From Flavobacteriales bacterium (lineage in GTDB: Bacteria > Bacteroidota > Bacteroidia > Flavobacteriales_F > PHOS-HE28), in contig JADJXF010000009.1 of assembly GCA_016715995.1 (NCBI GenBank), forward strand, positions 318,436-382,435: a DNA stretch of 64,000 bases, written 5' to 3'. Made by a program: the position numbers and the translations under genes. Of this stretch, positions 7,468-38,879 are shown in pieces. Under the pieces are notes generated by a model that was not told where the DNA came from, searched no databases, and saw only the letters and a program-made list of their open reading frames with translations. Every line of letters begins with the position of its first letter. The stretch's first letter is position 1.

Positions 7468-7905
7468 TTAACCCCGCTTCTCAGCCCACGCCTTGAACCG
7501 CTCCTGGATCTTGGCGCTCTCCTTCTTGAACGCGCTGGGCATGAGGAAGGCAATCACTTTCATGAAGCCTCGCATCCGGAATTCGTTGTCGGAATGCCAG
7601 ATGGTCTTTGAGGGTCCGGCTTCCTCGAAGGTATTGCGCACCTCGTTCCACACGCCCTTCGCTTCGTAGGTTCCGCTGAACTCGCGTGGCAGGTCGCGCT
7701 TGGTGATGGTCTCGACCATCTCGATCTCGCGGCCGCCCATCTTGTACTTCAATCGGCTCTTCGCGCCCAGCTGGCCGGGCGTGCCACTAATCGGTTCGAA
7801 GCTGATGAGCGTGGGCTGCCACTCCTTCATGGTCGCCGCGTTGTCGAAGAGCTGGATCATCCGCTCGCGCGGCAGGTCGATGGTGATCGTGGTGCGGAAT
7901 TTCAT
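7468..7905 (-). CDS. SRPBCC (Bet v1/AHSA1-like) superfamily protein
   Basis: MKFRTTITIDLPRERMIQLFDNAATMKEWQPTLISFE..., the typical polyketide-cyclase/AHSA1-like N-terminus. ATG at 7905; the track start further upstream is a TTG artifact. Confidence 0.65.
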   Translation of the reverse strand: MKFRTTITIDLPRERMIQLFDNAATMKEWQPTLISFEPISGTPGQLGAKSRLKYKMGGREIEMVETITKRDLPREFSGTYEAKGVWNEVRNTFEEAGPSKTIWHSDNEFRMRGFMKVIAFLMPSAFKKESAKIQERFKAWAEKRG

Positions 7906-7967: not shown

Positions 7968-8831
7968 TCACCCAATCACCCAAAGCCTTTTCGCTTCCAG
8001 CCTGAAGCGCACCTCATTCCCAATGGTCATGGGCTCGCCATCCAGGTGCGCGAGGGTGCCCTCCTGCCACACTTGCGCTTCCGTGGCGGTGATGTTGCGC
8101 ACGTACGGGTTGCGGTCGGCGCGGTGGGTGTAGATGTCGAAGAAGGCCTTGAGCAATGGGAAGAAAGGCGGCTTCTGAACCACGCGCAGCTCCGCCTGGC
8201 CATCATCGGGCAGTGAGCCGGGGCTGATGTCGGCGCCGTTGCCGAATTCGCGCGTATTGCAGAACACCAGCATGAGCACCTCCTGCTCGGTGGTCTCGTG
8301 GTTGGCCTTCACCACCACGCGCATCGGCGGCGCGCCGAAGATCTCCTGCACGATGATCCTGGCGTAACCGAGCATGCCGCGTCGCTTGCTCTTATCGAAG
8401 CGGTCCGCCACGCGCGCATCGAAGCCGATGCCGGCATTGCCAAGGAAGAAGGAGTCGTTGAGGTAGCACACATCCATCAGCCGCGGTGGGCCCGTAAGCG
8501 CATGCCGCAGCGCCTTCTCCGGATCCAGGGGCAGCTTGATGGACCGCGCGTAGCCGTTGCCGCTTCCCATGGCCACGATACCCATCGGGACCTCGCCGCC
8601 GAGCAGCCCCTGCGCGATGGCGTTGTTCGTGCCGTCGCCGCCGACGCTGATCACACGGTCAGCGCCTGCGGCCAAGGCCTCGCGCGCCAGCGTGGTGCCA
8701 TGACCTGGACCCTCTACTTCCCGCAACGTGAGTTCCATCCCAAGCTCGCGGCCCACGCGCTCCGCGATGCCCTTGATGCGCGGCGCCTGGTGCTTGCCGG
8801 ATCGGGGATTGTAGATCAGCGTGGCCTTCAT
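7968..8831 (-). CDS. diacylglycerol/lipid kinase, DAGK catalytic domain (YegS/DgkB-like)
   Basis: MKATLIYNPRSGK...VISVGGDGTNNAIAQGL...IVAMGSGNGYARS, the GGDGT nucleotide-binding motif. Its start overlaps the LtaS-like stop by 4 nt. Confidence 0.85.
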   Translation of the reverse strand: MKATLIYNPRSGKHQAPRIKGIAERVGRELGMELTLREVEGPGHGTTLAREALAAGADRVISVGGDGTNNAIAQGLLGGEVPMGIVAMGSGNGYARSIKLPLDPEKALRHALTGPPRLMDVCYLNDSFFLGNAGIGFDARVADRFDKSKRRGMLGYARIIVQEIFGAPPMRVVVKANHETTEQEVLMLVFCNTREFGNGADISPGSLPDDGQAELRVVQKPPFFPLLKAFFDIYTHRADRNPYVRNITATEAQVWQEGTLAHLDGEPMTIGNEVRFRLEAKRLWVIG

Positions 8832-10675
8832 GGCAGAGTGAGCTCCTGGCGCAGGAGGCGGTTGTTGAATTGCTGGATGGCGGCCTGCAGCACACTTTCC
8901 TTTTCGCTGCTGCTCGTGCCGTTCCCATCGGAACGCACCACGCCATCCGCATCGATGGCGAGGTAGCTGCCGGTAGTGCGCGTCACCGCCATGGGCGCGC
9001 GCTCATCGCGCAGCGCGCTGCTCCCGAAGCTAAAGAAGGGCCGGGTCATGCCGATCAGGTCCATCGCGGTGGGCACGATGTCGATGTGCTGGGTCACGCG
9101 ATCCACCGTTCGTGGCGCGATGGCCTCCGGCATGTGGAAGAGCAGGGGTACCCAGTAGTCCACGGCCTCGGAATACTGTTGGCCCGTGCGGTCGATGTCG
9201 GCGGTGTGGTCGGCGGTGATGATGAACAGCGTATTGCCGAACCATGGCTGTTTCCGGGCTGTCTCGAAGAAACGCCGGAGCGCGTCATCGGTGTACCGCA
9301 GCGAAGGATGGATCCGCAGCGTACCGCCCGCGAATCGCTCGGCATCCTCCGGAAGCAAGTGGTAGGGGTGGTGAGAACTGAGCGTGAAGACCGTGCTGAA
9401 GAAGGGCTGTTGCTCCTGGCTGAGTTCATTCGCCACGTACTGGAGGTACGGACGGTCCCAGATTCCCCAAGAGCCATCGTAATCCTCCTTCACCGGGTAT
9501 TCCTCCAGCCCACGGTAGCGAGCGTATCCGGCGCTCTTGGCGAAGCTGTCGAAGCCCATGGTTCCGTTTCGACCGCCATGGTAGAAGCTGGTGGAATAGC
9601 CCTCCTCGGCCAGCAGGTTCGCCATCGACGTGAACGGCGTCTGTGCGTACACCGAGGTGATGAAGGCCTCGTCCATCAGCTCCGGGATCGCGGCGGTGAT
9701 GGCCGGTATGCCATCGATGCTGCGGCGCCCATTCGCATAAGCGCGTGTGAACGTGAGGCTCTGCGCCATCAGCGAATCGAGGAAGGGCATGTAGCCTTCG
9801 TTGCCGGAGAGCTTTGCGCTGTACGCGGCGGAGAAGCTCTCAAGGATGAGCAGCACCACGTTCGGGCGCGTGCTGGCGATCGCGATTGATTCCGGCGTGT
9901 TCTTCTGCTCGCTGTACTGATGCTCAACCGGCCACAAGCGATCCGCTTCTTCCTGTGTCATGTATGCCTTCTTCTCCACCACCGGCTTGCCCCAGGTCAT
10001 CATGATGGTGAAGGGCGTGTTCAGGACCACCGAGAAGTAGGGTGGCGGCACATGGTCGGCGGCGTTCATCACACCAATCGGAATGAGCTGCACGCCGCCG
10101 CGCGAGGCCAGCACGAGGAGCGCAATGGTCACCACGCGCCACATGATTCGCCTGTCCGGACTTGAATAGCCGCTGGCCGAAAGCCGCGCTGCGCGCCGAT
10201 ACGCCCACCACGCGAAGACCAGGCAGGCGATGAAGAGAAGCACGATGTACCAATACTCCTTCGCGAACACCGTTGCAAGGCTTCCGGTGTCACCGCCCCC
10301 TGCCATGATGCCGAAAAGGTCAGCGGTGCTGCGCTTCAAGGTGAACTTGTAGTATTCGAGGTCGGCGCAGGCGAAGAAGAAGCCGATGGCATTCACCACC
10401 ACGAACATGGTCTGCTTCACACGGGCGAACCAGCCTTGCTCCGTGTCGTGCGCTAGGCAGAGCACGATCCACGGCAGGTTGAGCCAGGCCAGTACGCTCA
10501 AATCGAAACGGATGCCGCCCCAATACGCGGCGAAGGGCACGTTCGGGAAGGCGTCGCGGTTGAGCAGCACGAAGGCGATGCGCAGCAGCGTGTACACGAG
10601 CGCGAGCGCGCCCATCCGGGCAAGCATCACGAGCAAGGGTCCGCGCAGGTTTCGCACGGCGCCAAAGATGCGCAA
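8828..10675 (-). CDS. LTA-synthase/sulfatase-family (LtaS-like) polytopic membrane phosphotransferase
   Basis: About 5 N-terminal TM helices, then a sulfatase/alkaline-phosphatase fold (VVLLILESFSAAY..., HGGRNGTMGFD, ADHTAD). 615 aa. Confidence 0.85.
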   Translation of the reverse strand: MRIFGAVRNLRGPLLVMLARMGALALVYTLLRIAFVLLNRDAFPNVPFAAYWGGIRFDLSVLAWLNLPWIVLCLAHDTEQGWFARVKQTMFVVVNAIGFFFACADLEYYKFTLKRSTADLFGIMAGGGDTGSLATVFAKEYWYIVLLFIACLVFAWWAYRRAARLSASGYSSPDRRIMWRVVTIALLVLASRGGVQLIPIGVMNAADHVPPPYFSVVLNTPFTIMMTWGKPVVEKKAYMTQEEADRLWPVEHQYSEQKNTPESIAIASTRPNVVLLILESFSAAYSAKLSGNEGYMPFLDSLMAQSLTFTRAYANGRRSIDGIPAITAAIPELMDEAFITSVYAQTPFTSMANLLAEEGYSTSFYHGGRNGTMGFDSFAKSAGYARYRGLEEYPVKEDYDGSWGIWDRPYLQYVANELSQEQQPFFSTVFTLSSHHPYHLLPEDAERFAGGTLRIHPSLRYTDDALRRFFETARKQPWFGNTLFIITADHTADIDRTGQQYSEAVDYWVPLLFHMPEAIAPRTVDRVTQHIDIVPTAMDLIGMTRPFFSFGSSALRDERAPMAVTRTTGSYLAIDADGVVRSDGNGTSSSEKESVLQAAIQQFNNRLLRQELTLP

Positions 10676-10678
10676 GGA

Positions 10679-12187
10679 TCACCGCGCTGGCCGGTATATC
10701 CAGCGGCCATCAACGGCTGACACTGGCGCGCCTAGCGGATAGGCCCATTGCAGGAAGCGTAGGCTGTCTAGCGGCCGGTCGCTGATCACGTAGCGCACCT
10801 CGCCGGATCGCATCATCGCATCGAAGCGACCCAGGTCGAACGGCGGATCCACGCTCCATTCCACGATATCCTTCTGGCTCACGAGGCTCTGGCCGTTCAA
10901 CAGCAGCTCAAGATGCCCGCGATAGGTGATGAACACATGATCCATGGGTAGCAGACCGAATTCATCCTTCAGTACGGAATGGAGGCGCTCATCTGATTGA
11001 AGCCGTGCCTCGTGCTTGGCGTCATCGCCGAGCGCAAGGACCGTGTAACGCAAGGCGGACGCACGGTGAACCATGTATTGCCCGGCTTGCAGGAAGAAGA
11101 TCAGCACGAGGGCCGAAGCCATAGTGCGGGATGTGTTCAGCAGTTTCGGTTCAGCGCTCATCACCGCGCAACCGACGAAGACAAGCACGAGGTTCTCGAA
11201 GAAGTAGTTGTATTCACTGCCGGCCTTCAACGCGGTGAGGAAGGCGAAGGCAAGGCTCAGTGGAATGGAGAGCAACAGGAATCGCGACAGCGGATCCCGG
11301 CGTTTGAGGAGGGCTACCGGAATCAACAGCGATGCGGCATGCCAGCCGACGAGGTGGAGGTAGTCGCGCGAGGCGAACAGATGCCGGAGGTAATCGTTCC
11401 GCAGTCCGTTCCGCAAGCCGCCAACGGTGTTCGCTAGGAGCAGGCTCATGTCCTCTCCTTGCAGCAACGCGCTGCCAACGACGAGCAGCGTGAGCCCGGC
11501 TGCCCCGGAGAACCACGCGAGCGCACGCCAATCGCGCAGCCAGAGGAGCAGCAGCGGCACAAGCATGAAGAGCAGGATCGCGGTCTGCTTGAAAAGCAGC
11601 GCGACCGCGGCCATCGCTCCGGCCAGCAGCATGGCGTCTCGCTTCTGCCGCGATGCTTCCGCTCGCGCGTAGCGGAACACGAAGAACAGCGTAGCGACGA
11701 ATCCGAGGGCGTATAGCGCATCCACGCGTCCGAAGAAGTGCTTGCTGAACGCGGCGAACGTGAGCAGGCCAGCGATCACCGCGCCTGATCGGTTGGCGCC
11801 AGCGGCCCGTGCAGCGGCGAAGACCACCGCCAACGTGAGCAGGTTGAGTACGAGCGACAGAATGCGGTTCAGCAGGTAAAGCGCTCGGAGCTCGTATGCG
11901 CCGATGCCCAGCGCCCTTGCGGTCCCCGCCACGAGCGCATGATAGGCCGGCGTGTATTGCACCACATCGAACGGCTGCTGCTGCGGATCGGTGTAGAGCG
12001 CCTTCCCCAGCATGATCTTCTGGATGCCGTGCATCACGCTCAGCTCCGCACCGGCGATGTCAGGGCTGTGACTCGTGATCAACGGCACGCGTAGACCGGT
12101 CATCACCACGACGCAGGCCCCCAGCAGCACCAGCAGCAGCTTGCGCGTCGGGGCGATCAGCCTATCCGTTGCTGTTAGCATGCCCAT
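10679..12187 (-). CDS. polytopic membrane protein, GT-C-type glycosyltransferase-like (ArnT/PMT-like)
   Basis: 502 aa with about 11 predicted TM segments and an early loop YTDPQQQPFDVVQYTPAYH. The family assignment is an inference from topology and operon context only. Confidence 0.5.
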   Translation of the reverse strand: MGMLTATDRLIAPTRKLLLVLLGACVVVMTGLRVPLITSHSPDIAGAELSVMHGIQKIMLGKALYTDPQQQPFDVVQYTPAYHALVAGTARALGIGAYELRALYLLNRILSLVLNLLTLAVVFAAARAAGANRSGAVIAGLLTFAAFSKHFFGRVDALYALGFVATLFFVFRYARAEASRQKRDAMLLAGAMAAVALLFKQTAILLFMLVPLLLLWLRDWRALAWFSGAAGLTLLVVGSALLQGEDMSLLLANTVGGLRNGLRNDYLRHLFASRDYLHLVGWHAASLLIPVALLKRRDPLSRFLLLSIPLSLAFAFLTALKAGSEYNYFFENLVLVFVGCAVMSAEPKLLNTSRTMASALVLIFFLQAGQYMVHRASALRYTVLALGDDAKHEARLQSDERLHSVLKDEFGLLPMDHVFITYRGHLELLLNGQSLVSQKDIVEWSVDPPFDLGRFDAMMRSGEVRYVISDRPLDSLRFLQWAYPLGAPVSAVDGRWIYRPAR

Positions 12188-12193
12188 GTCCCT

Positions 12194-12913
12194 TCATCCT
12201 TGGCGATCACCTGCATCTGCTGATGGCTTGCGCGCGACGCACAGCAGCGATCGTCCGAAGGAGTGCAGCACCAGCTTGTCCGTCACCCGCGAGCACGGAA
12301 CAACCATGCGGTCCCAGAAGCGCAGTTGCCCCATGGTAGGCGCGTTTTGGCGAAGCAGGCACTTGTTGGCCAGCGAGGGCAGGAGTCCCGCGCTGTCCAG
12401 GTAGCGGAGGTCGATGACTTCCAGCGGCGAGGGCAATTCACTGCGGAGCATGCGCTTGTCGTACCGGCGGAAATGCCCGATGGCACGGTCGAATTCGCTG
12501 AAGAGGAAGTTGAACGCAGGCACAAGGATGAGCAGGTGACCACCGGGCTGGAGCAACGCGTAGGCGCGTTGCAGTTCCGCGCTGCTGTCCTCAATGTGCT
12601 CGATCACATCGATGTAGAGGATGGTGTCGAACCGCCGACCGGTGAGCTGCGCCGTGGTGCCGTGGATGCGTTCCGCTGCGCCGAGGACCGGCTGCGACGT
12701 GAACGGAGGAACGCGATCGAGCAGCGCCTGGTCTGGTTCGAGGAAGGTGTACGCGCTCACTCGCTCATTCACGAGGTGCTCCGCATTGGCGCCGATGCCG
12801 CAGCCCACATCGAGCACCTGCCCCCGCACGCAGGGTCGCAGCACGCCCGAGAAATAGCGCTTCCAGTTGCGTGCGTGCTGGAAGAGGTCCAGCTCCGTGC
12901 CTTGATAGGTCAT
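12194..12913 (-). CDS. class I SAM-dependent methyltransferase
   Basis: VLDVGCGIGANAEHL (motif I, GxGxG) ... LQPGGHLLILVP. ATG at 12911-12913 overlaps the upstream GT2 stop (ATGA). Confidence 0.75.
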   Translation of the reverse strand: MTYQGTELDLFQHARNWKRYFSGVLRPCVRGQVLDVGCGIGANAEHLVNERVSAYTFLEPDQALLDRVPPFTSQPVLGAAERIHGTTAQLTGRRFDTILYIDVIEHIEDSSAELQRAYALLQPGGHLLILVPAFNFLFSEFDRAIGHFRRYDKRMLRSELPSPLEVIDLRYLDSAGLLPSLANKCLLRQNAPTMGQLRFWDRMVVPCSRVTDKLVLHSFGRSLLCVARKPSADAGDRQG

Positions 12914-13842
12914 GCGCTCCCGTCGGGATGCACGGTGTACAGATGCCGACCCGCGCGTTCGCGACGCTGGGCGGTGTTCACCAGCAGCAGGCCGGTGGTG
13001 AAGAAGCCCAGGCACAGCAGCATTCCGTTGAAGAGCGAGACAGAAAGCAAACTGGCCCATCCCGGGATGGCCCACGGGGTGAAGAGCTTGATGCCCACGA
13101 TGGCCATGAGCGAGAGCAAGAGGACGATCGCCAAGCCGATGAGGCCGCGCAGGAATGTGGAGAGCACCTCTTCACTGTACTCGATCAGCGCACGGAAAGC
13201 GTGCACGCTCAGTCCGCGGAAGCTCATCTTGCTGGTGCCGTCGATGCGCGGACGCCGGTCGCGCACGATGACGCGGGTGGCCACGCGCTGCCGGGAGAGG
13301 AAAGCCGCATAATGCGTGAATGAACGGTCGAGCACGGCGGACAGGACGCGGCGATCGATCATGCAGTAGTTGCCGAAGGGGATGCTGCGACCAGCGAGCA
13401 GCCGGAAGACGAGCCGGTATACCTGATAGCCGATCCGGAAGCCCACCGGCTCCGAGCGTCGGCCACGGGCCACGAAGGCGATGGACGCCTCCGAGATGCC
13501 CGCAAGCTCGACGATGGCACCCGGATCATCCTCGCCATCGCTGTCCATCACGATGAAGCGCCCGGCATCCAGCGTGCTGGCGAACTGCAGGCCCTGGTAG
13601 ATGGCTTCCTGATGCCCCATGTTGTAGCCCAGTGAAAGGCAGCGGAGCTTCACGTTCGGGGCGCTGGACGTATGCGCCAGCAGCAGGTGCAGGGTGTCGT
13701 CGGGGCTCGCGTCGTCCACCATCACCACCGTGAAACGGTGCGGCTGCCGGGCAAGCACCTGCTCCAGTTCCTCCACGAAGCGGACGGCCACGCTCCCCTC
13801 GTTGTAGCAGGGCGCGATGATGGCGAAGTGCTGGTCGGTCAT
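12910..13842 (-). CDS. GT2 polyprenyl-phosphate glycosyltransferase (ArnC/DPM1/GtrB-like)
   Basis: MTDQHFAIIAPCYNEG...VVMVDDASPDDT...VMDSDGEDDP, the DxD/ED catalytic motifs, plus two C-terminal TM helices typical of ArnC/GtrB. Confidence 0.85.
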   Translation of the reverse strand: MTDQHFAIIAPCYNEGSVAVRFVEELEQVLARQPHRFTVVMVDDASPDDTLHLLLAHTSSAPNVKLRCLSLGYNMGHQEAIYQGLQFASTLDAGRFIVMDSDGEDDPGAIVELAGISEASIAFVARGRRSEPVGFRIGYQVYRLVFRLLAGRSIPFGNYCMIDRRVLSAVLDRSFTHYAAFLSRQRVATRVIVRDRRPRIDGTSKMSFRGLSVHAFRALIEYSEEVLSTFLRGLIGLAIVLLLSLMAIVGIKLFTPWAIPGWASLLSVSLFNGMLLCLGFFTTGLLLVNTAQRRERAGRHLYTVHPDGSA

Positions 13843-13867
13843 GGCGTTCGGCGAAGTAACGGGGAAG

Positions 13868-13950
13868 TGTTGTCAGTTGTCTGTTCTCGGTTGCCCGTCG
13901 CACCGACCCCGCCTTCACTGACAACCGACAACCGGGAACTGACAACTCGC
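13868..13950. promoter_or_regulatory. imperfect inverted repeat rich in GTTGTC/GACAAC hexamers in the divergent promoter region
   Basis: Left arm gtgttgtcagttgtctgttctcggttg; right arm cactgacaaccgacaaccgggaactgacaactc. It lies between the minus-strand lipid operon start (13842) and the E1 gene. Confidence 0.35.
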
Positions 13951-13986: not shown

Positions 13987-13994
13987 TACCTTTG
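13987..13994 (+). promoter_or_regulatory. Bacteroidota -7-like promoter box TACCTTTG
   Basis: Matches TAnnTTTG and lies 16 nt upstream of ATG 14010. This argues against the TTG start at 13992 used by the ORF track. Confidence 0.3.
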
Positions 13995-14009
13995 CCCCGC
14001 TTAACCATC

Positions 14010-16058
14010 ATGCCCACACTGACCACGGAGGATCGCCAGCTCCACTTCGAGCACGGCACCCACACCGACGCCTTCCTCATCGCCACCTACGAGAAGCTCG
14101 TCTTCCCCCGCATCATCGAGGAGAAGATGCTCAGTTTGCTGCGCCAGGGTAAGATCAGCAAATGGTTCAGCGGCATCGGTCAGGAGGCCATCAGCGTGGG
14201 CGCGGCCATGGCCCTGCACCCGGACGAGTACATCCTGCCGATGCACCGCAACCTGGGCGTGTTCACCACGCGCGGCATGCCCTTCCGCAAGCTCTTCGCG
14301 CAATGGCAGGGCAAGGCCACCGGTTACAGCAAGGGCCGCGAGCGCAGCTTCCACTTCGGCAGCCAGGAGCACAAGGTGGTGGGCATGATCAGCCACCTAG
14401 GGCCGCAGATGGGCATCGCCGACGGCATCGCGCTGGCGCACAAGCTGAAGAAGGAGAATCGCTGCACCATCGTCTTCACCGGCGATGGCGCCACCAGCGA
14501 AGGCGATTTCCACGAGAGCGTGAACGTGGCGGCGGTATGGGACCTGCCCGTGCTCTTCATCATCGAGAACAACGGCTACGGACTGAGCACGCCCAGCAGC
14601 GAGCAGTTCCGCATGAAGAGCTTCGTGGACAAGGCCATCGGCTACGGCATCGAAGGCGTGCAGATCGCCGGCAACAACATCCTGGAGGTGTACGACAACA
14701 TCGCGCGGCTGGCCGACAGCGTGCGCGAGAACCCGCGTCCCATCTTGGTGGAGTGCATCACCTTCCGCATGCGCGGCCACGAGGAAGCCAGCGGCACCAA
14801 GTACGTGCCCAAGGAGCTTTTCGAGGAATGGGGCAAGAAGGATCCCGTGGCCAACTACGAGGCCTGGCTGCTGAAGATCGGCGTCCTCACCATCGCGAAG
14901 CGCGACGAGATCCGCACGCGGCTGAAGGATGGCATCGAGGCCGATTTGAAGTTGGCGTTCGAGGAGCCGGAGCCGGTTCCCGTTGAAGAGGTGGAGGTGG
15001 GTGATGTATACGCGCCCGTTCCGAGCGGGGGCGAGGGGGGCGCGAGTACCAAGCTGCCCCTCGACTCCGCTCAGGGCAGTCGTGAGATCCGCATGATCGA
15101 TGCGATCCAAGAAGGCATGGCGCAAAGCATGGAGCGCCACGCCAACCTCGTCCTCATGGGCCAGGACATCGCGGAGTACGGCGGTGCGTTCAAGATCACG
15201 GAGGGCTTCGTGGAGCAATTCGGCAAGGACCGGGTGCGCAACACGCCGTTGTGCGAGAGCGCGATCCTGGGTGTATCGCTCGGCCTCAGCATCAAGGGCA
15301 TGAAGTCGATGATGGAGATGCAGTTCGCCGATTTCGTCAGCGAGGGCATCACGCAGATCTGCAACAACCTCGCGAAGGCCCACTACCGCTGGGGGCAGAA
15401 CGCCGACGTGGTGGTGCGCATGCCCACCGGTGCCGGAGTGGGAGCGGGGCCCTTCCACAGCCAGAGCAACGAGATGTGGTTCGTGAAGACGCCCGGACTG
15501 AAAGTGGTGTACCCGAGCAACCCCTACGATGCCAAGGGCCTGCTCATGACCGCCTTCGACGACCCGAATCCGGTGATGTTCTTCGAGCACAAGGCCATGT
15601 ACCGCAGCATCACCGGGCCGGTGCCCGAGCAGCCTTACTGCATTCCCTTCGGCAAGGCGAATGTTGTGCGTGAAGGCAAGGCCCTAACGATCATCACCTA
15701 CGGCATGGGCGTGCATTGGGCAATGGAGACAGTGCAAGCCCTGAGCGGAGTCGAAGGGCGACCAATTGATGCGGAGATCATAGATCTAAGAACACTCGTT
15801 CCCCTCGATGTGGACACCATCCTCACCAGCGTGAAGAAGACCGGCAAGGCCCTCGTGCTGCACGAGGACACCCTCACCGCCGGCATGGGCGGCGAGATCA
15901 GCGCGCTCATCAACGAGCACGCCTTCGAATACCTCGATGCACCCGTGGTGCGCGTGGCGAGTTGGGATACGCCCGTGCCTTTCGCTATTCCGCTGGAGAA
16001 TGGCTTCTTGCCGAAGGGGAGGTTGAAGGCGGCGGTGGAGAGGTTGGTGAACTACTGA
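14010..16058 (+). CDS. 2-oxoacid (pyruvate/branched-chain) dehydrogenase E1 component, fused alpha/beta subunits
   Basis: TPP-binding GDGATSEGDFHESVN...IENNGYG in the alpha part; a transketolase-like beta part (MQFADF..., GPFHSQS). Ends ...FAIPLENGFLPKGRLKAAVERLVNY. Confidence 0.9.
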   Translation: MPTLTTEDRQLHFEHGTHTDAFLIATYEKLVFPRIIEEKMLSLLRQGKISKWFSGIGQEAISVGAAMALHPDEYILPMHRNLGVFTTRGMPFRKLFAQWQGKATGYSKGRERSFHFGSQEHKVVGMISHLGPQMGIADGIALAHKLKKENRCTIVFTGDGATSEGDFHESVNVAAVWDLPVLFIIENNGYGLSTPSSEQFRMKSFVDKAIGYGIEGVQIAGNNILEVYDNIARLADSVRENPRPILVECITFRMRGHEEASGTKYVPKELFEEWGKKDPVANYEAWLLKIGVLTIAKRDEIRTRLKDGIEADLKLAFEEPEPVPVEEVEVGDVYAPVPSGGEGGASTKLPLDSAQGSREIRMIDAIQEGMAQSMERHANLVLMGQDIAEYGGAFKITEGFVEQFGKDRVRNTPLCESAILGVSLGLSIKGMKSMMEMQFADFVSEGITQICNNLAKAHYRWGQNADVVVRMPTGAGVGAGPFHSQSNEMWFVKTPGLKVVYPSNPYDAKGLLMTAFDDPNPVMFFEHKAMYRSITGPVPEQPYCIPFGKANVVREGKALTIITYGMGVHWAMETVQALSGVEGRPIDAEIIDLRTLVPLDVDTILTSVKKTGKALVLHEDTLTAGMGGEISALINEHAFEYLDAPVVRVASWDTPVPFAIPLENGFLPKGRLKAAVERLVNY

Positions 16059-16061
16059 GCG
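15980..16061 (+). repeat. direct repeat copy 1 (last 27 codons of the E1 gene)
   Basis: ttcgctattccgctggagaatggcttcttgccgaaggggaggttgaaggcggcggtggagaggttggtgaactactga. A 39-nt core is identical to the copy at 16741-16823. The AGG/TTG/GGG codon usage is atypical for this gene. Confidence 0.7.
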
Positions 16062-16081: not shown

Positions 16082-16468
16082 ATGAGCAAGCTTGGGATCA
16101 AGGGCAGCATTCCGGTGGACAAGGGGCGGGTGGAACTGAAGCTGTCCTTGTTGAAGTTCAAGGAGGACGACATCGTTTTCATCTACAGCCCGGCACTGGA
16201 CCTTACCGGCTATGGGAAGGACGGCCGCTCCGCTAAGCGTTCGTTCGAGATCACGCTAGAGGAATTCGTGAACTACACCACCAATAAAGGAACTCTGGAC
16301 AAGGAGTTGCGGCGGCTCGGTTGGACGGTCGGCGGGAGCAAGCGCTCACCGAAGTTCCAGCAACCCTACTTGGATGAATTGTTCAAGGCCCGACCCTATC
16401 TCGGCGAGATCTTCCGCGAGAAGGAGTTCCAGCGGTTTGATGAGGAGGTGATGTTCCCAGCAGCCTGA
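16082..16468 (+). CDS. HicB-like antitoxin (UPF0150 / RNase H-like fold)
   Basis: KFKEDDIVFIYSPALDLTGYGKDGRSAKRSFEITLEEFVNYT matches the HicB N-domain pattern (D-GY-v-sP-L-G--t-G-T-EEA). It lies immediately upstream of hicA with a 2-nt gap. Confidence 0.55.
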   Translation: MSKLGIKGSIPVDKGRVELKLSLLKFKEDDIVFIYSPALDLTGYGKDGRSAKRSFEITLEEFVNYTTNKGTLDKELRRLGWTVGGSKRSPKFQQPYLDELFKARPYLGEIFREKEFQRFDEEVMFPAA

Positions 16469-16704: not shown

Positions 16705-16740
16705 TTGAACCGGAGAAGAACATGAAAGCCATTGTGACCT

Positions 16741-16823
16741 TCGCAATTCCGCTGGAGAACGGTTTCCTACCGAAGGGGAGGTTGAAGGCGGCGGTGGAGA
16801 GGTTGGTGGGGTATTGAGCCTGC
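16741..16823 (+). repeat. direct repeat copy 2, an orphan 3' fragment of an E1 gene (...FAIPLENGFLPKGRLKAAVERLVGY*)
   Basis: ttcgcaattccgctggagaacggtttcctaccgaaggggaggttgaaggcggcggtggagaggttggtggggtattga. It differs from copy 1 mostly at synonymous positions. The sequence preceding it is unrelated. Confidence 0.7.
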
Positions 16824-17665: not shown

Positions 17666-17695
17666 GACGCAAGAATATCCGTGAGGGTTGTCCTT

Positions 17696-17782
17696 AGACC
17701 TCAGCAGGGTCCCACTCTAGACCTCAGCAGGGTGTCACCCGCTCCCGAGCGCTGGGCGTGTATTGCTAAATCTCAGCAGGAT
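17696..17782. repeat. three copies of A(G/A)A(C/T)CTCAGCAGG(G/A)T, two spaced 23 bp apart and a third 49 bp further on
   Basis: agacctcagcagggt at 17696 and 17719; aatctcagcaggat at 17768. They lie 30-120 bp upstream of the 17665 minus-strand start. Confidence 0.4.
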
Positions 17783-17850
17783 CTCGCGCCTTCAAGTACC
17801 CTGCGCCCTGTCCATCAATGCGCCGCTGCTTCCCGTACGCCGTTCGCACG

Positions 17851-30788: not shown

Positions 30789-31703
30789 TCAACCTGCCTT
30801 CGCTCCCGCGCGCGGGTGGAAGCGCAGGATGTTGCTGCGCAGGTATTCCCGATCCAGGTGCGTGTAGATCTCCGTGGTGGTGATGCTGGCATGGCCGAGC
30901 ATCTCCTGCACCGCGCGCAGGTCCGCGCCGCCCTCAACCAGATGCGTGGCGAACGAGTGCCGGAAGGTGTGCGGGCCGATGGTCTTGCGCACGCCAGCGC
31001 GCACGGCCAGTCGCTTCACAAGGTTGAAGACGGACATGCGCGACAGTCCTCCGCCGCGCGCGTTGAGGAAGACGATGTCCTCCGCCTTCTTCTGCACAGG
31101 CAGTGCGGCGCGTTCGTGCCGCACGTAGAGCCCGATCCAATGCAGGGCCTCCGCGCCGATGGGAACCAGCCTTTCCTTGTCGCCCTTGCCCACCACGCGC
31201 AGGAATCCTTCGGCGGCGCTGATGCGCGATAGACGCAGCCCGCAGAGCTCGCTCACGCGAAGTCCGCAGCCATAGAGCGTTTCGATGATCGCCCTGTCAC
31301 GGTGCGCCAGTCGCGCGCTCAGGTCCACCGCGTCGGCCAACGCGTCGATTTCATCTATGGAGAGGAAGACAGGCAGCTTGCGACCCAGCCGTGGGCTCTC
31401 GATCAATTCGCTCGGGTCGTTGTCGATGGCCTTGTCCACAAGTAGGCTGCGGTGGAATACGCGCACCGCGCTGAGCAGGCGTGCCTGACTTGTGGCAGCG
31501 AGTCCTGTGCGCGCTTGGCTGGTGATGAAGGCTTGCAGGTCGTCCAGGGTCAGGCAATCAGGCGGCAGGGGCGGGGCGTTCCCTTCGGCGAAGGCACGCA
31601 GCTTGGCGATGTCGTGCGCATAGGCCTGCACGGTCCGGTCACTGAGCGCGCGCTCGAGCTTCAGGTACATGCGGAAGCCGCGCAGGGCCTTCTCCCAATC
31701 CAT
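30789..31703 (-). CDS. xerD: site-specific tyrosine recombinase XerD
   Basis: MDWEKALRGFRMYLKLERALSDRTVQAYAHDIAKL...GLRVSEL...GKGDKER...HTFRHSFATHLVEGGADLRAVQEMLGHASITTTEIYTH, giving R..HxxR..Y. ATG at 31703. The 470-aa track ORF has an artifactual extension. Confidence 0.85.
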   Translation of the reverse strand: MDWEKALRGFRMYLKLERALSDRTVQAYAHDIAKLRAFAEGNAPPLPPDCLTLDDLQAFITSQARTGLAATSQARLLSAVRVFHRSLLVDKAIDNDPSELIESPRLGRKLPVFLSIDEIDALADAVDLSARLAHRDRAIIETLYGCGLRVSELCGLRLSRISAAEGFLRVVGKGDKERLVPIGAEALHWIGLYVRHERAALPVQKKAEDIVFLNARGGGLSRMSVFNLVKRLAVRAGVRKTIGPHTFRHSFATHLVEGGADLRAVQEMLGHASITTTEIYTHLDREYLRSNILRFHPRAGAKAG

Positions 31704-31793
31704 GCACGAAGGTTCATTGTCGTTGGTCGCTGGTGCCGCGCTGGTCACCCTGGCTTCCAACGCTGCGCTGTTCATCCGCATCTTCGCGCGGCG

Positions 31794-32219
31794 ATGGCGC
31801 GCTTCCTCATCCTCAACGGGCCCAACCTCAACCTGCTTGGATCGCGGGAGCCGTCGGTCTATGGAGGCCGTTCCTTCGAGGAGTACCTGGTGGACCTGCG
31901 CGGCGAGTTCGCGGCGCACGCCATCGTTCATGTGCAGAGCAACATCGAAGGGGAATTGGTAGAGGCCGTGCAGCGCGCGGATGGGGCGTACGATGGCTTG
32001 GCGCTCAATGCCGGCGGGTTCACGCACACCTCCGTTGCGCTGCGCGATGCGATCGCTGCGGTGCGCATCCCGGTTGTGGAGGTGCACATCAGCAACCTGC
32101 TGGAGCGGGAGCCCTTCCGCCACGTTTCGCTCACGGGCGGCGTATGCATCGGGAGCATCATGGGCCTCGGCCTCGATGGCTACCGGCTCGCCATCGCCCA
32201 TCTGCTTCAGCGCCGCTGA
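31794..32219 (+). CDS. aroQ: type II 3-dehydroquinate dehydratase
   Basis: MARFLILNGPNLNLLGSREPSVYG...ALNAGGFTHTSVALRDA...VVEVHISN. 141 aa. ATG at 31794. Confidence 0.9.
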   Translation: MARFLILNGPNLNLLGSREPSVYGGRSFEEYLVDLRGEFAAHAIVHVQSNIEGELVEAVQRADGAYDGLALNAGGFTHTSVALRDAIAAVRIPVVEVHISNLLEREPFRHVSLTGGVCIGSIMGLGLDGYRLAIAHLLQRR

Positions 32220-33241
32220 TGGAAGGCGGCTTGGTCGAGCGCGGAGAAGCGCTTCCAGCCGAGCACGAAGCGGTCATAGGCGATGCTGCGGTGATAGAGG
32301 CCGGTGAGGTCGGGTGAGCGGTCCAGGGCGGCGAGTGATCGGCGCTGCCTGAGCGCGCGCGGCAGCCGTGCAATGAAATGCCATTGGGCGCGACCGACTT
32401 CCCACGAGTGGCGGCCATGGCCCTCGATCAGGAATTTGATCGCAGCGAAGCCATCGAGCACCATGCGCCTCAGCAGCCAGAGCCACCATCGCGGACCGCT
32501 TAGATTCTTCGTGAGTACCAGGAGGCTGTTGCGGAAGTTGAGGTAGGTCTTGCGGGGGCTGCCGTAGCCGAGGGCGCCGCCCCCGACGTGGCGCACCGAT
32601 GCGCTGCTGGTGTAACCGATGCGCCAGCCCTGGCGACGTAACCGCCAGCAGAGGTCGATCTCCTCCATGTGGGCGAAGAAGGCCTCATCGAATCCGCCCG
32701 CGCCGTGGAATGCTTCGGCGCGGATCAGCAGGCAAGCGCCCGTGGCCCAGAACACCTCGCGATCGTCGTCGTACTGCCCCGAGTCGGACTCGGTGATCTC
32801 GAAGATCCTGCCCCGGCAGAAGGGGTAGCCGTTGCGGTCGAGGAATCCGCCAGCCGCGCCTGCATGCTCGAATCGGCCCGGATCGGCGTGGGAAAGGACC
32901 TTGGGTTGGCAGGCGGCCATCAGCGGATCGCGATTGAGGTAGGCATTCAGCTGTTCGAGCCAGCCCGGCGTCACCTCCACGTCGCTGTTGAGCAGGAGGT
33001 AACGTTCCGCATCCACCTGTTGGAGCGCCATGTTGTAGCCTCCAGCGAAGCCGAGGTTGCGCGGCAGTTGTATCACGCGCACCGTAGGCATCGCTTCGCG
33101 GAGCCAGGCCGTTGAACCATCCGTTGATGCGTTGTCGGCCACGATCACTTCCGCGCCGGAGCTGTTGGCCAGCACGCCGGGCAGGAAGCGCTGCAGCCAA
33201 TGCTGCCCGTTCCAATTGAGGATGACGATCGCCGTGCGCAT
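32207..33241 (-). CDS. family-2 glycosyltransferase
   Basis: MRTAIVILNWNG...VIVADNASTDGS...LLNSDVEV, the GT-A DxD fold. Its end overlaps the convergent aroQ 3' end. Confidence 0.8.
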   Translation of the reverse strand: MRTAIVILNWNGQHWLQRFLPGVLANSSGAEVIVADNASTDGSTAWLREAMPTVRVIQLPRNLGFAGGYNMALQQVDAERYLLLNSDVEVTPGWLEQLNAYLNRDPLMAACQPKVLSHADPGRFEHAGAAGGFLDRNGYPFCRGRIFEITESDSGQYDDDREVFWATGACLLIRAEAFHGAGGFDEAFFAHMEEIDLCWRLRRQGWRIGYTSSASVRHVGGGALGYGSPRKTYLNFRNSLLVLTKNLSGPRWWLWLLRRMVLDGFAAIKFLIEGHGRHSWEVGRAQWHFIARLPRALRQRRSLAALDRSPDLTGLYHRSIAYDRFVLGWKRFSALDQAAFHQRR

Positions 33242-33286
33242 GCGTCTGAAGCGCGGCAAAGGTGGGGCGGCGCGGTCAGCCGATGA

Positions 33287-34744
33287 TCAGCGCGGATCGT
33301 TGAAGAACTCGTTCACCCGATCGCTCTCGAGGGTGCCCACCTGCTGGGTCTGCACGCCGGGCAGCGGCACGTTGCGCTGGTGCAGGATGTTGTTCCACTG
33401 CGGATTATTCATCTCGCCGGGCACTTCACTGTGCAGGAGCACCAAGCACGAATTGGCCAGGTCGGGCTGGTAGAAGACGAAGCGCCGGTTGGTGTACTTG
33501 CCAGCGCGGTAGTAATGCCAGATGGTGTAGGGCAGGGTGCCCATCTCGTTGAACCGGTCCATCATCGTGTTCGGCGGCCCGTACTTGAGATAAGTCTGCC
33601 CGCGATCGGTCTCGTAGCCGCGCAGCACGCGGCATCCGAAGATCTTGTTCACCTTGATCACCTCGGCGCGATAAGCGCGCCACGCGGATTCGGGGTCAGC
33701 GCCCCGGTTGGCCCAGAAGCTGTACATGAAACGGCGCATCAGGTCCATGTCGCGATCCTTCCAGCGGTCGTCGATGATCTTGCGCTCCAACGGATCGGCG
33801 ATGGGCCGCAGGCTGTGGATGTGGGCGGCGAGCGAATCCGCATCCTGGAAAGCGCCGACGAAGGTGTTGCTGATGTCGAACGCGGCGAGCGATTGCAGGT
33901 CGTAGTTGAACGCGATGGGATTGTTGCGCTGGAAGAACAGTTCGCGCCGATCCACCAGGTCGCCGCGCCGATCCCGGATCTCCACCACCGCCAGATAGTT
34001 CCCCGAAGAGAGTTGGCCAATGTCGAATTCCGCGAATACCGGCTCCACTTTCCGTGCTTTGATGCGCTGCCCCATCTTCAGGCCACCGCTCACCATCCGC
34101 TTATCCAGGTCCTCCACCTGCCAGGAGAGCAGGTACAGGCTATCCTGCCCGAATCGCTCGTCGGCGCCATAGACCTCAGCGTAGAATGCCAGACGGCCTA
34201 CGCTAGGCGGCAGGTAATCGCTCAGCAGCGGCACCGCGCGATACCCGAACTTCGATGGCACATCCGCTGGTGCGCGCTCGAATCGCTCGGCGAAGAGGAT
34301 GTCCGAGATCGACAAGCCTGAAGGCTGAGCGCCGATGGCGAGCGGCGCATCATACCTCGTCACGGTCGTGTCCGTGCTGTTCAGGTCGCGCACCTCGATG
34401 GAGAGTTGGTATTCACCGGGTGGAAGGTCGAAGAACTCCTGATGCACCAGGTCGGTCTGGAGGGAATCGAGCCGCTCCGGACCGAGGACCTCCGTCTTGG
34501 CGAAGGCCTTGATCGCACCCGCCTGTTCGATGATCGTGAGCGCCTCCACGCGTGCCTGGGTGAAGCCGGGCTGGGTGGACTTCATAGTGGCAGTGCCAGC
34601 TAGGATGGCCATGTTCACTTCCACACGAGGGCCGGCATTTGGTTGGTGGAACACTCTTGTCTCCACGGCCAAGTCGACTGCGGCCCGCAGCGGGGACAAA
34701 AGCATGAGCAGGGCGAGGAGGAGGGTGGATCGCTGGTAGGCCAT
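33287..34744 (-). CDS. GWxTD-domain protein (secreted)
   Basis: Signal MAYQRSTLLLALLMLLSPLRA; C-terminal ...GYETDRGQTYLKYGPPN... is the GWxTD motif region. Confidence 0.75.
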   Translation of the reverse strand: MAYQRSTLLLALLMLLSPLRAAVDLAVETRVFHQPNAGPRVEVNMAILAGTATMKSTQPGFTQARVEALTIIEQAGAIKAFAKTEVLGPERLDSLQTDLVHQEFFDLPPGEYQLSIEVRDLNSTDTTVTRYDAPLAIGAQPSGLSISDILFAERFERAPADVPSKFGYRAVPLLSDYLPPSVGRLAFYAEVYGADERFGQDSLYLLSWQVEDLDKRMVSGGLKMGQRIKARKVEPVFAEFDIGQLSSGNYLAVVEIRDRRGDLVDRRELFFQRNNPIAFNYDLQSLAAFDISNTFVGAFQDADSLAAHIHSLRPIADPLERKIIDDRWKDRDMDLMRRFMYSFWANRGADPESAWRAYRAEVIKVNKIFGCRVLRGYETDRGQTYLKYGPPNTMMDRFNEMGTLPYTIWHYYRAGKYTNRRFVFYQPDLANSCLVLLHSEVPGEMNNPQWNNILHQRNVPLPGVQTQQVGTLESDRVNEFFNDPR

Positions 34745-34866
34745 CACCACAAAGCTAGGGTCATTGCGCATGGCGTTGCGACCGCTCACATGGACGCCGT
34801 TGCCGATGCTCGCTTGAGAGGTGGGATGAGACGTTCAAGCGGATTGCTGAGCGTGGGCGTGAGAAA

Positions 34867-38797: not shown

Positions 38798-38879
38798 CAA
38801 GCATTGATGCGTTGCCTATCGGCATCATGAACCCCGACAACCGGCAACCGACAACAGACACCCGGCAACTGGGCTAGCA

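Follow-up and report, generated by a model that had tools for sequence, protein, structure and literature searches.

In the window analysed here, a 64,000-nucleotide (nt) stretch of contig JADJXF010000009.1 from a Flavobacteriales bacterium, five minus-strand genes at 7968-13842 encode, in the order of reading, a GT2 glycosyltransferase (GT2), a methyltransferase (MT), a GT-C-fold membrane glycosyltransferase (GT-C), an LtaS-family membrane transferase with a sulfatase-fold domain (SULF) and a DAGK_cat-type lipid kinase (DAGK). We consider it reasonably probable that these genes make up two modules, one for transfer of a phospholipid head group with recycling of diacylglycerol and the other for a Gtr/Arn-like, strain-variable sugar decoration. 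SULF and DAGK appear to be an old, widespread and tightly linked pair, and GT2, MT and GT-C appear to form an accessory set inserted between SULF and the divergent gene E1, for a fused alpha/beta 2-oxoacid dehydrogenase, in one Flavobacteriales sub-clade and in several arrangements. Judging from sequence comparison, the catalytic transmembrane (TM) domain of GT-C undergoes allelic cassette exchange.

The separation of the modules emerged from comparison with relatives, all of them uncultured metagenome-assembled genomes (MAGs) or metagenome contigs. A SULF-anchored sample, unbiased with respect to GT-C, comprised three look-ups (L024-L026) and 80 metagenome loci (L047-L126), which we divided into close loci (about 50% SULF identity or more) and distant loci (35-41%). 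Because many of the sampled metagenome loci are near-duplicates and hence not independent, the resulting counts are indicative only: DAGK lies directly downstream of SULF in 42 of 42 close and 25 of 30 distant loci, down to 35% SULF identity, and GT-C lies directly upstream of SULF in 20 of 32 close and 0 of 24 distant loci. Usually GT2, MT and GT-C are all absent from the vicinity of the pair. This adjacency bears out the pairing of an LtaS-type enzyme with a diacylglycerol kinase proposed in an earlier interpretation of the bare letters of this DNA, hereafter the sequence-only reading. The commonest close arrangement has nothing between E1 and SULF-DAGK (11 of 12 close, informative loci in which no GT-C precedes SULF).

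Several other arrangements were found among loci anchored on GT-C and in the SULF-anchored sample. Between E1 and SULF-DAGK stands GT2-MT-GT-C in the window and in L001, L005, L009, L020 and L023, the same set with two tandem GT-C genes in L016 and L044, GT-C without GT2-MT in L012, L015 and L017-L019, and GT-C-GT2-MT in L021. MT-GT-C precedes SULF-DAGK without GT2 in L064, L065 and L074, and SULF-DAGK occurs alone in L024-L026 and many of L047-L126. GT2-MT-GT-C is found with an ABC exporter gene nearby and without SULF-DAGK in L002-L004, L008 and L045, and GT-C adjoins an ABC exporter in L014 and L022. GT-C is the constant member of the accessory set. The order of five genes seen in the window recurs in at least six non-identical loci (L001, L005, L009, L020, L023 and L047), and the arrangement is therefore not due to chance. 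The sequence-only reading had seen the full logic of one pathway in this operon; the five genes do occur together, but they are not co-conserved as one pathway, since each module occurs without the other. A tidy five-gene "pathway" drawn from a single genome can thus be composite.

Comparison with the nearest relative (L009-L011) delimits the exchanged part of GT-C. Identity to the window in these loci is 97% for E1, 90% for GT2, 80% for MT, 88-89% for SULF, 94% for DAGK and 95% for an M1 peptidase, but only 38% for GT-C. When the DNA of the window is aligned with that of L009, both flanks are 87-88% identical and 12226-10937, from the last ~30 nt of the MT gene through GT-C residue 417, is unalignable. 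In 30-residue windows, identity of the two GT-C proteins ranges from 16 to 60% (mean ~30%) up to residue ~420 and is 70-76% thereafter; the downstream breakpoint of the cassette coincides with the start of a conserved C-terminal domain, predicted to be periplasmic. Across all loci, the N-terminal domain of GT-C shows a flat 32-42% identity, with 64-98% for E1 and 55-88% for SULF in the same loci. The similarities of GT-C and SULF are also incongruent, the GT-C of L009 being closest to that of L023 (57%) and its SULF to that of the window (88-89%). By analogy with the Gtr(type) enzymes, the exchange probably reflects differences between strains in the acceptor or linkage that the enzyme chooses on a surface glycan. 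This most unusual feature of the operon had escaped the sequence-only reading.

Gene layout, the LtaS-family transferase and its kinase

All five genes were confirmed in the list of open reading frames (ORFs) of the window (Table 1) and are probably co-transcribed. The junction sequences contain two ATGA overlaps, in which the MT start lies on the GT2 stop and the kinase start on the SULF stop, and a 6-nt gap between MT and GT-C. The gap between GT-C and SULF measures 3 nt if counted to a TTG start codon; the 609-aa length of the NCBI protein implies a later start and hence a gap of ~21 nt. A Flavobacteriales MAG contains an annotated protein of 100% identity (locus tag IPM46_04610). The overlap of SULF and DAGK was likewise found in L001, L005 and L009. 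As the junctions are of at most 6 nt, there is no room for a further gene such as gtrA. The whole GT-C protein has 502 aa (10679-12187, minus strand), and the coordinates of MT count from its ATG, the longest ORF extending to 13075. All proteins but the 502-aa membrane protein, which obtains sub-threshold matches only, have a family assignment in Pfam and NCBIfam, and a hydropathy scan detected no TM segment in MT and DAGK. The close packing proposed in the sequence-only reading is therefore confirmed, save for the wider gap that the alternative SULF start would give, and its family calls hold for all five proteins, namely a GtrB/ArnC-type GT2, a class I S-adenosylmethionine (SAM)-dependent methyltransferase, a GT-C-fold protein, an LtaS-family transferase and a DAGK_cat/YegS_C kinase.

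Table 1. Features of the operon and of the adjoining intergenic region (window coordinates)
Feature	Position	Strand	Basis or remark
GT2 glycosyltransferase, GtrB/ArnC/DPM1 type, 310 aa	12910..13842	-	GT-A domain and two C-terminal TM helices
MT, class I SAM-dependent methyltransferase, soluble, 239 aa, motif VLDVGCGIG	12194..12913	-	Pfam, model
GT-C-fold membrane glycosyltransferase, transmembrane (catalytic) domain, residues 1-417, hypervariable cassette	10937..12187	-	
GT-C C-terminal alpha/beta domain, residues 418-502, predicted periplasmic, conserved	10679..10936	-	
SULF, LtaS-family (VP1736-like) membrane phospho-head-group transferase (predicted), 615 aa	8828..10675	-	PF00884, PDB matches
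DAGK, soluble DAGK_cat/YegS_C lipid kinase, 287 aa, GGDGT motif	7968..8831	-	PF00781, PF19279
Imperfect inverted repeat of GTTGTCN heptads	13869..13946 (arms 13869-13898, 13917-13946)		Between the divergent E1 and operon starts
Short motif GTTACTTCGCC	13850..13860	-	~9 nt upstream of the GT2 start codon; candidate promoter-proximal element
TACCTTTG, perfect match to TAnnTTTG	13987..13994	+	15 nt upstream of ATG 14010 of the divergent E1; not part of the operon

SULF is predicted to be an LtaS-family phospho-head-group transferase. Residues 271-543 match the Sulfatase family in Pfam (PF00884, E = 1e-40), and the TM segments detected between residues 13 and 202 in the hydropathy scan form an N-terminal block, with the sulfatase-fold domain extracytoplasmic. 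Its closest PDB sequence is Vibrio VP1736 (6e-42), followed by the LtaS proteins of Listeria, Bacillus and S. aureus (8e-23 to 7e-12) and by arylsulfatases (~1e-5). S319, the predicted nucleophile, aligns to T300 of S. aureus LtaS, a column fixed by the T300A entry 2w5r, so that Ser occupies the position held by Thr in LtaS. The predicted metal ligands E279, D489 and H490 align to E255, D475 and H476 of LtaS, and the active-site residues are invariant in 15 homologs. SULF does not group with the arylsulfatases: the nucleophile context reads NGRRSIDG, with no C/S-x-P-x-R motif, and the arylsulfatase matches at ~1e-5 compare with 6e-42 for the LtaS-type VP1736 and 8e-23 for Listeria LtaS. An EptA-type assignment was rejected as well, the EptA-type N-terminal membrane domain being matched neither in Pfam nor in NCBIfam.

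The sequence-only reading had left the choice between LtaS, EptA and MdoB for this gene to further searches. These place SULF in the LtaS family but do not extend to specificity for glycerol phosphate. The best NCBIfam matches (LtaS at 5e-26, OpgB-type models at 7e-15 and 1e-12) are all far below their cutoffs, with 91.5 bits against the 970 required for the LtaS equivalog. In place of LtaS residues D349, W354 and R356, which we take to contact the glycerol moiety of glycerol phosphate, SULF has G, M and F; a glycerol-phosphate head group is therefore not established. The sequence of SULF suggests that its head group could be a different one, and phosphatidylethanolamine may be the donor. Literature searches on LtaS-type enzymes in Bacteroidetes or Flavobacterium returned no functional study.

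DAGK carries the two domains DAGK_cat (PF00781, E = 4e-28) and YegS_C (PF19279, E = 3e-16), with the GGDGT motif readable in the translation, and matches 4wer (2e-19), YegS (5e-18) and DgkB (3e-14) in the PDB. The conserved adjacency to an LtaS-family gene leads us to predict that this kinase recycles diacylglycerol to phosphatidic acid. In Gram-positive bacteria, recycling of diacylglycerol by DgkB is part of essential membrane lipid recycling (PMC11962490).

The glycosylation genes

GT2 belongs to Glycos_transf_2 (PF00535, E = 4e-13) and retains the acidic motifs VDDAS and DSD (DSDGED). It matches the GtrB protein sll0501 over nearly its full length in the PDB (3e-14, residues 6-284) and ArnC over residues 7-271 (3e-7), and has C-terminal TM segments at 233-251 and 263-291 in the hydropathy scan. 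In NCBIfam it falls short of the ArnC equivalog PRK10714 (33.6 bits vs. a cutoff of 529) and also remains far below the cutoff of the PgfS model. The predicted product of this enzyme is a polyprenyl-phosphate sugar. The adjoining MT matches Methyltransf_23 (E = 3e-16) and also Methyltransf_12, 11 and 25 in Pfam, and its AlphaFold2 model has a predicted local distance difference test (pLDDT) score of 90.6. Its relatives form more than 100 clusters at 48% identity or more, the named ones coming from Flavobacteriales or Bacteroidetes MAGs. The polysaccharide gene cluster at L046 1-14469, which also has a GtrA_DPMS_TM protein, epimerase-like genes and a number of GT2 genes, includes a more distant homolog of MT (48% identity), a context that lends weak support to a glycan-related role of this methyltransferase family.

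GT-C could be placed by its fold. It scores below threshold with PMT_2 (22.5 bits vs. a cutoff of 26.1) and PMT (16.4 vs. 22.7) in Pfam and has zero matches in NCBIfam. A PDB search by sequence returned matches at chance level only, and a fold search was therefore needed. An AlphaFold2 model built from an alignment of 10 homologs (pLDDT 82.7, predicted template modelling score 0.85) shows a multi-TM GT-C architecture, the point on which the sequence-only reading of this protein depended, and has ArnT as its best structural match, with 421 aligned residues. Since ALG12, GPI mannosyltransferase I, AglB and PMT4 follow within ~1 Z unit of ArnT, the fold proves a GT-C enzyme but not the identity of its acceptor. 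D43, E48 and D67 are invariant in the 10 homologs and lie after TM1, in or near the first predicted periplasmic loop, where model residues 67-76 are of low confidence. From residue 417 onward the model consists of strands and helices, and this C-terminal domain holds the conserved sequence TYRGHLELLLNGQ...QKDI.EWS...VRYVISD, with invariant columns between 421 and 470. A full hidden Markov model search collected 365 cluster representatives at E <= 1e-30 and, with the limit relaxed to E <= 1e-3, 4055. GT-C belongs to a sizeable family of its own without a curated model.

Some further observations concern the GT-C family. Tandem, mutually divergent paralogs lie upstream of SULF in L016 (2478-5434), L044 (7696-10708) and L048 (1-2094). 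The pair in L044 is 26% and 44% identical to the window protein (hhalign), and a third copy in the same genome is found beside an ABC exporter (L014). Where GT-C occurs away from SULF, an exporter gene (ABC_membrane and ABC_tran) is located beside it or one gene away, at L002 7021-8865, L008 6749-8599, L022 9307-11469 and L045 10098-11918 (in L045 on the opposite strand), and may mark a second functional context; two Acyl_transf_3 genes follow further downstream in L002 and L008. A phage origin of the glycosylation module was considered and rejected, as the GT-C scan of viral contigs was empty and that with MT gave only short generic SAM-motif matches. Within the window, 30789-34789 encodes a tyrosine recombinase (Phage_integrase, 470 aa), then a same-strand GT2 (350 aa) and a 500-aa protein without a Pfam match. 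The latter two (32207-33259 and 33287-34789) were tried as a second pair of GT2 and GT-C and discarded, the 500-aa protein having an hhalign probability of 0.1 to this GT-C family.

Mechanism, alternatives and known systems

In the mechanism we favor, SULF would use S319 and a bound metal at the periplasmic face of the inner membrane to take a phospho-alcohol off a glycerophospholipid and attach it to an acceptor in the envelope. This reaction would leave diacylglycerol, which the translationally coupled kinase would re-phosphorylate to phosphatidic acid at the cytoplasmic face. GT2 would make a polyprenyl-phosphate sugar on the cytoplasmic face, and MT would probably modify either this lipid-linked sugar before flipping or its nucleotide precursor. 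An unlinked flippase would then carry the lipid-linked sugar across the membrane, where GT-C would hand it to a periplasmic acceptor, with a specificity that differs between strains. The accessory module would have been inserted just upstream of SULF, possibly behind the same promoter. Enzymes that act on lipid-linked sugars have precedents in ArnD, LgmC, NaxD and the archaeal AglP. Whether the two modules act on one molecule is evenly balanced in our judgment: the repeated placement of GT-C directly before SULF, with its conserved domain facing it, argues for a common molecule, and the independent occurrence of both modules weighs against it.

Several observations weigh against this mechanism. 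All substrates in it are predicted, and the operon contains no flippase gene. The residues that would recognize glycerol phosphate in LtaS are replaced in SULF, and the kinase remains below the cutoff of every lipid-kinase equivalog model in NCBIfam. Enzymes of the DAGK_cat family also phosphorylate ceramide, dihydrosphingosine and phosphatidylglycerol (PMC10331486). The structure of MT was uninformative as to its substrate, the confident model retrieving generic class I methyltransferases of many substrate classes in Foldseek. GT-C loci without GT2 leave the supply of the sugar donor unexplained. No GT-C relative was detected on viral contigs in scans with the GT-C alignment, and the Shigella gtr clusters are phage-borne. 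Finally, the gene arrangements were counted in a sample of partly redundant loci that derive throughout from uncultured organisms.

In an alternative along the lines of the sequence-only reading, the five genes form one dedicated pathway for a glycosylated glycolipid or polymer containing glycerol phosphate, a Gram-negative likeness of teichoic acid. SULF would act as polymerase or primase in the manner of LtaS, the kinase would correspond to DgkB, and GT2 and GT-C would form a CsbB/YfhO-like glycosylation pair. The tight packing, the recurrence of the gene order in at least six distinct loci, the several independently derived arrangements that bring GT-C directly upstream of SULF, and LtaS being the best characterized match of SULF all fit such a pathway. 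We nevertheless find it unlikely, because many relatives have SULF-DAGK without GT2, MT and GT-C and others have GT2-MT-GT-C without SULF-DAGK, because D349, W354 and R356 of LtaS are not kept and the LtaS model is matched so far below its cutoff, and because literature searches gave no report of such a polymer in Flavobacteriales. The adjacency of the modules might instead be incidental, the stretch between E1 and SULF being a permissive insertion site and the accessory module decorating a glycan unrelated to whatever SULF modifies. This explanation, rather doubtful but ahead of the preceding one, draws on the independent existence of both modules, on the JADJKO01 genome, from which both L014, with GT-C by the ABC exporter, and L044, with further copies in the SULF operon, derive, and on the highly variable gene content between the promoter region and SULF. 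However, GT-C lies immediately upstream of SULF in at least five arrangements, including those with GT-C alone, at gaps of only 3-50 nt across loci, which would be hard to repeat without selection for linkage; moreover, the portion of GT-C nearest to SULF, its C-terminal domain, is the conserved one.

Remodeling of lipid A or of the lipopolysaccharide core by an ArnC/ArnT-type system seems to us about as improbable as a dedicated glycerol-phosphate pathway. GT2 would supply an undecaprenyl-phosphate sugar, GT-C would add the sugar, SULF a phospho-head group in the manner of EptA or OpgB, and MT would stand in for the on-lipid modifying enzyme (ArnD, LgmC or NaxD). In the known lipid A aminosugar systems (Arn, Lgm and Flm), a GT2 enzyme is followed by a modifying enzyme and a GT-C enzyme, a logic that the three accessory genes match, and ArnT is the best structural match of GT-C and ArnC is among the matches of GT2. 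Nonetheless, PMT_2 remains below its Pfam threshold, SULF has no EptA-type N-terminal domain in Pfam, and a conserved lipid A chemistry fits poorly with tandem paralogs and with the swap of a TM domain between backgrounds that are 97% identical. The least probable alternative, and a very unlikely one, concerns the kinase. Bacteroidota make sphingolipids, and DAGK might, like CpgB, dhSphK1 or YegS, produce a phosphorylated lipid (ceramide-1-phosphate, a sphingoid-base phosphate or phosphorylated phosphatidylglycerol) that serves SULF as substrate or acceptor; the two enzymes together would then form an anionic lipid head group. Bacterial DAGK_cat kinases do include a ceramide kinase, the dihydrosphingosine kinase of P. 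gingivalis and YegS (PMC10331486). The top matches of DAGK in the PDB and in NCBIfam do not tell the two types, DgkB and YegS, apart. Nevertheless, all characterized LtaS-, OpgB- and EptA-type enzymes known to us release diacylglycerol, which would explain more simply why a kinase partner is conserved; the window ORFs scanned included no gene for sphingolipid synthesis, and the Cpg pathway has no described sulfatase-fold partner.

The two-module reading can be set beside known systems. The O-antigen glucosylation (Gtr) clusters of Salmonella and of Shigella phages have conserved, interchangeable gtrA and gtrB genes and a gtr(type) gene specific to the serotype (PMC3259042, PMC3688519). The accessory set resembles these clusters in combining a GtrB-type GT2 that is conserved (90% here) with a GT-C that is exchanged (~30-38% here). 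Unlike them, it comes without a gene for a GtrA flippase, has MT between GT2 and GT-C, resides in Flavobacteriales rather than on phage contigs, swaps only the TM domain with retention of the conserved C-terminal domain, and is embedded in an operon with an LtaS-like enzyme and a kinase. The ArnC/ArnD/ArnT system and its Lgm and Flm counterparts share a GT2, a modifier of the lipid-linked sugar and a GT-C for which ArnT is the top structural match; they differ in having a deformylase or deacetylase instead of MT and in the ArnC model that GT2 misses by a wide margin, and a hypervariable GT-C would be unexpected for a lipid A acceptor.

For the enzyme set as a whole, the closest analogue comes from Gram-positive bacteria. 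In the synthesis of the group A carbohydrate side chain of streptococci, GacI is the GT2 for the polyprenyl-phosphate sugar, GacL the extracytoplasmic GT-C, and GacH an LtaS-family enzyme that transfers a phospho-alcohol from a phospholipid (10.1101/337519). That system lacks a methyltransferase and a linked diacylglycerol kinase, whereas the LtaS-like enzyme described here clearly occurs without glycosylation genes in many relatives and its head group is not established. For lipoteichoic acid synthesis and the recycling of diacylglycerol, Firmicutes likewise combine LtaS, with a TM block and an extracytoplasmic domain, with the soluble DAGK_cat kinase DgkB. SULF keeps the metal ligands and the nucleophile position of LtaS, but departs from it in the Ser nucleophile, the replaced glycerol-phosphate residues and the low NCBIfam scores. 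Its closest structure is the uncharacterized Vibrio VP1736, and the SULF and kinase genes are translationally coupled through their ATGA overlap.

The logic of the operon is thus familiar, and its combination is new: a Gram-negative order here joins an LtaS-family enzyme and a coupled kinase of the diacylglycerol type to a Gtr/Arn-like module with a methyltransferase and a cassette-exchanged GT-C that lacks a curated family. Both the conserved pair and the domain-level exchange are unstudied and directly testable. Identification of the SULF acceptor would reveal an unrecognized envelope modification in a major environmental phylum and clarify how diacylglycerol formed in the periplasm is dealt with in these bacteria. 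The GT-C family offers a clean natural case of domain-level cassette exchange in a membrane glycosyltransferase, useful for finding which part of a GT-C sets acceptor specificity, and is a likely marker of phage- or grazer-driven surface variation in uncultured Flavobacteriales. In a bolder version, to which we give little credence, the operon would specify an envelope glycoconjugate system undescribed so far, in which decoration or polymerization by a universal LtaS-like enzyme, with diacylglycerol recycled by the coupled kinase, is supplemented in one sub-clade by glycosylation of the same molecule, the new GT-C family exchanging its catalytic TM domain against a conserved, periplasmic C-terminal domain that docks on the LtaS-like enzyme or its product. 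Flavobacteriales would then have a Gram-negative equivalent of teichoic-acid glycosylation, with antigenic switching built in.

Intergenic elements and neighboring genes

A TACTT(T)CG-like motif is located ~10 nt upstream of the first start codon regardless of the leading gene. Reading of the intergenic sequences revealed GTTACTTCGCC or GTTACTTCGTC in GT2-first loci, GGTACTTTCGGCG or GCTACTTTCGTCG at the corresponding place in GT-C-first loci, and GATCTTCGC in SULF-first loci. Because the motif keeps its place before whichever gene comes first, it suggests that one promoter drives all arrangements. On the side of E1 (13987-16058, including the box), TACCTTTG conforms to TAnnTTTG, which we take to be the -7 promoter consensus of Bacteroidota; its reverse complement AAAGGTA stands beside E1 in most loci, with GAAGGTA and AAAAATA variants in a few. 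Scans for sigma-70 promoters and terminators, which are ill-suited to Bacteroidota promoters, yielded counts at chance level.

The GTTGTC/GACAAC inverted repeat pointed out in the sequence-only reading is real and above chance. Its arms of 30 nt each are 80% complementary, the heptad pattern GTTGTCNGTTGTC has six matches in the window against 0.27 expected, and the fold energy is -41.3 kcal/mol (z = -3.06). The repeat may be an operator. It was rejected as a conserved regulatory element of the system, being limited to a few GT2-first loci: L009-L011 and L016 have a similar repeat, L001 and L013 have half of such a repeat, and L005, L020 and all GT-C-first and SULF-first loci have none. A second GTTGTC-type heptad cluster, with three overlapping matches, lies far from the operon at 38836-38862, so the heptad may not be peculiar to this promoter region but recur throughout the genome as a repeat or binding motif.

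An SRPBCC (Polyketide_cyc2) protein with a lipid-binding fold is encoded at 7468-7905 on the same strand, 60 nt downstream of the kinase. Its position is not kept in relatives, a ParE toxin gene occupying the site in L001 and the SRPBCC gene lying 8 kb off in L024. On the other side of the operon, E1 precedes SULF, in opposite orientation, in the majority of informative close relatives (L025, L026, L059, L066 and others) and in 6 of 24 distant ones, which may hint at an old link of the dehydrogenase with the SULF-DAGK pair or be plain synteny. The last 86 nt of E1 are duplicated (15975-16060 and 16734-16819; 87% identity, 759 nt from start to start). The ~670 nt between the copies contain a 128-aa ORF (16082-16468), and G+C content falls to 54-56% over 16-18 kb. 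The pattern resembles an insertion into the 3' end of E1 by which the end of the gene was rebuilt; in L020, too, a second C-terminal fragment of E1 lies downstream of the E1 gene. In the low-G+C stretch after this insertion, the 21-nt direct repeat TAGACCTCAGCAGGGTCCCAC is present three times (17695-17787), the other copies being 90% and 76% identical and the starts 23 and 49 nt apart.

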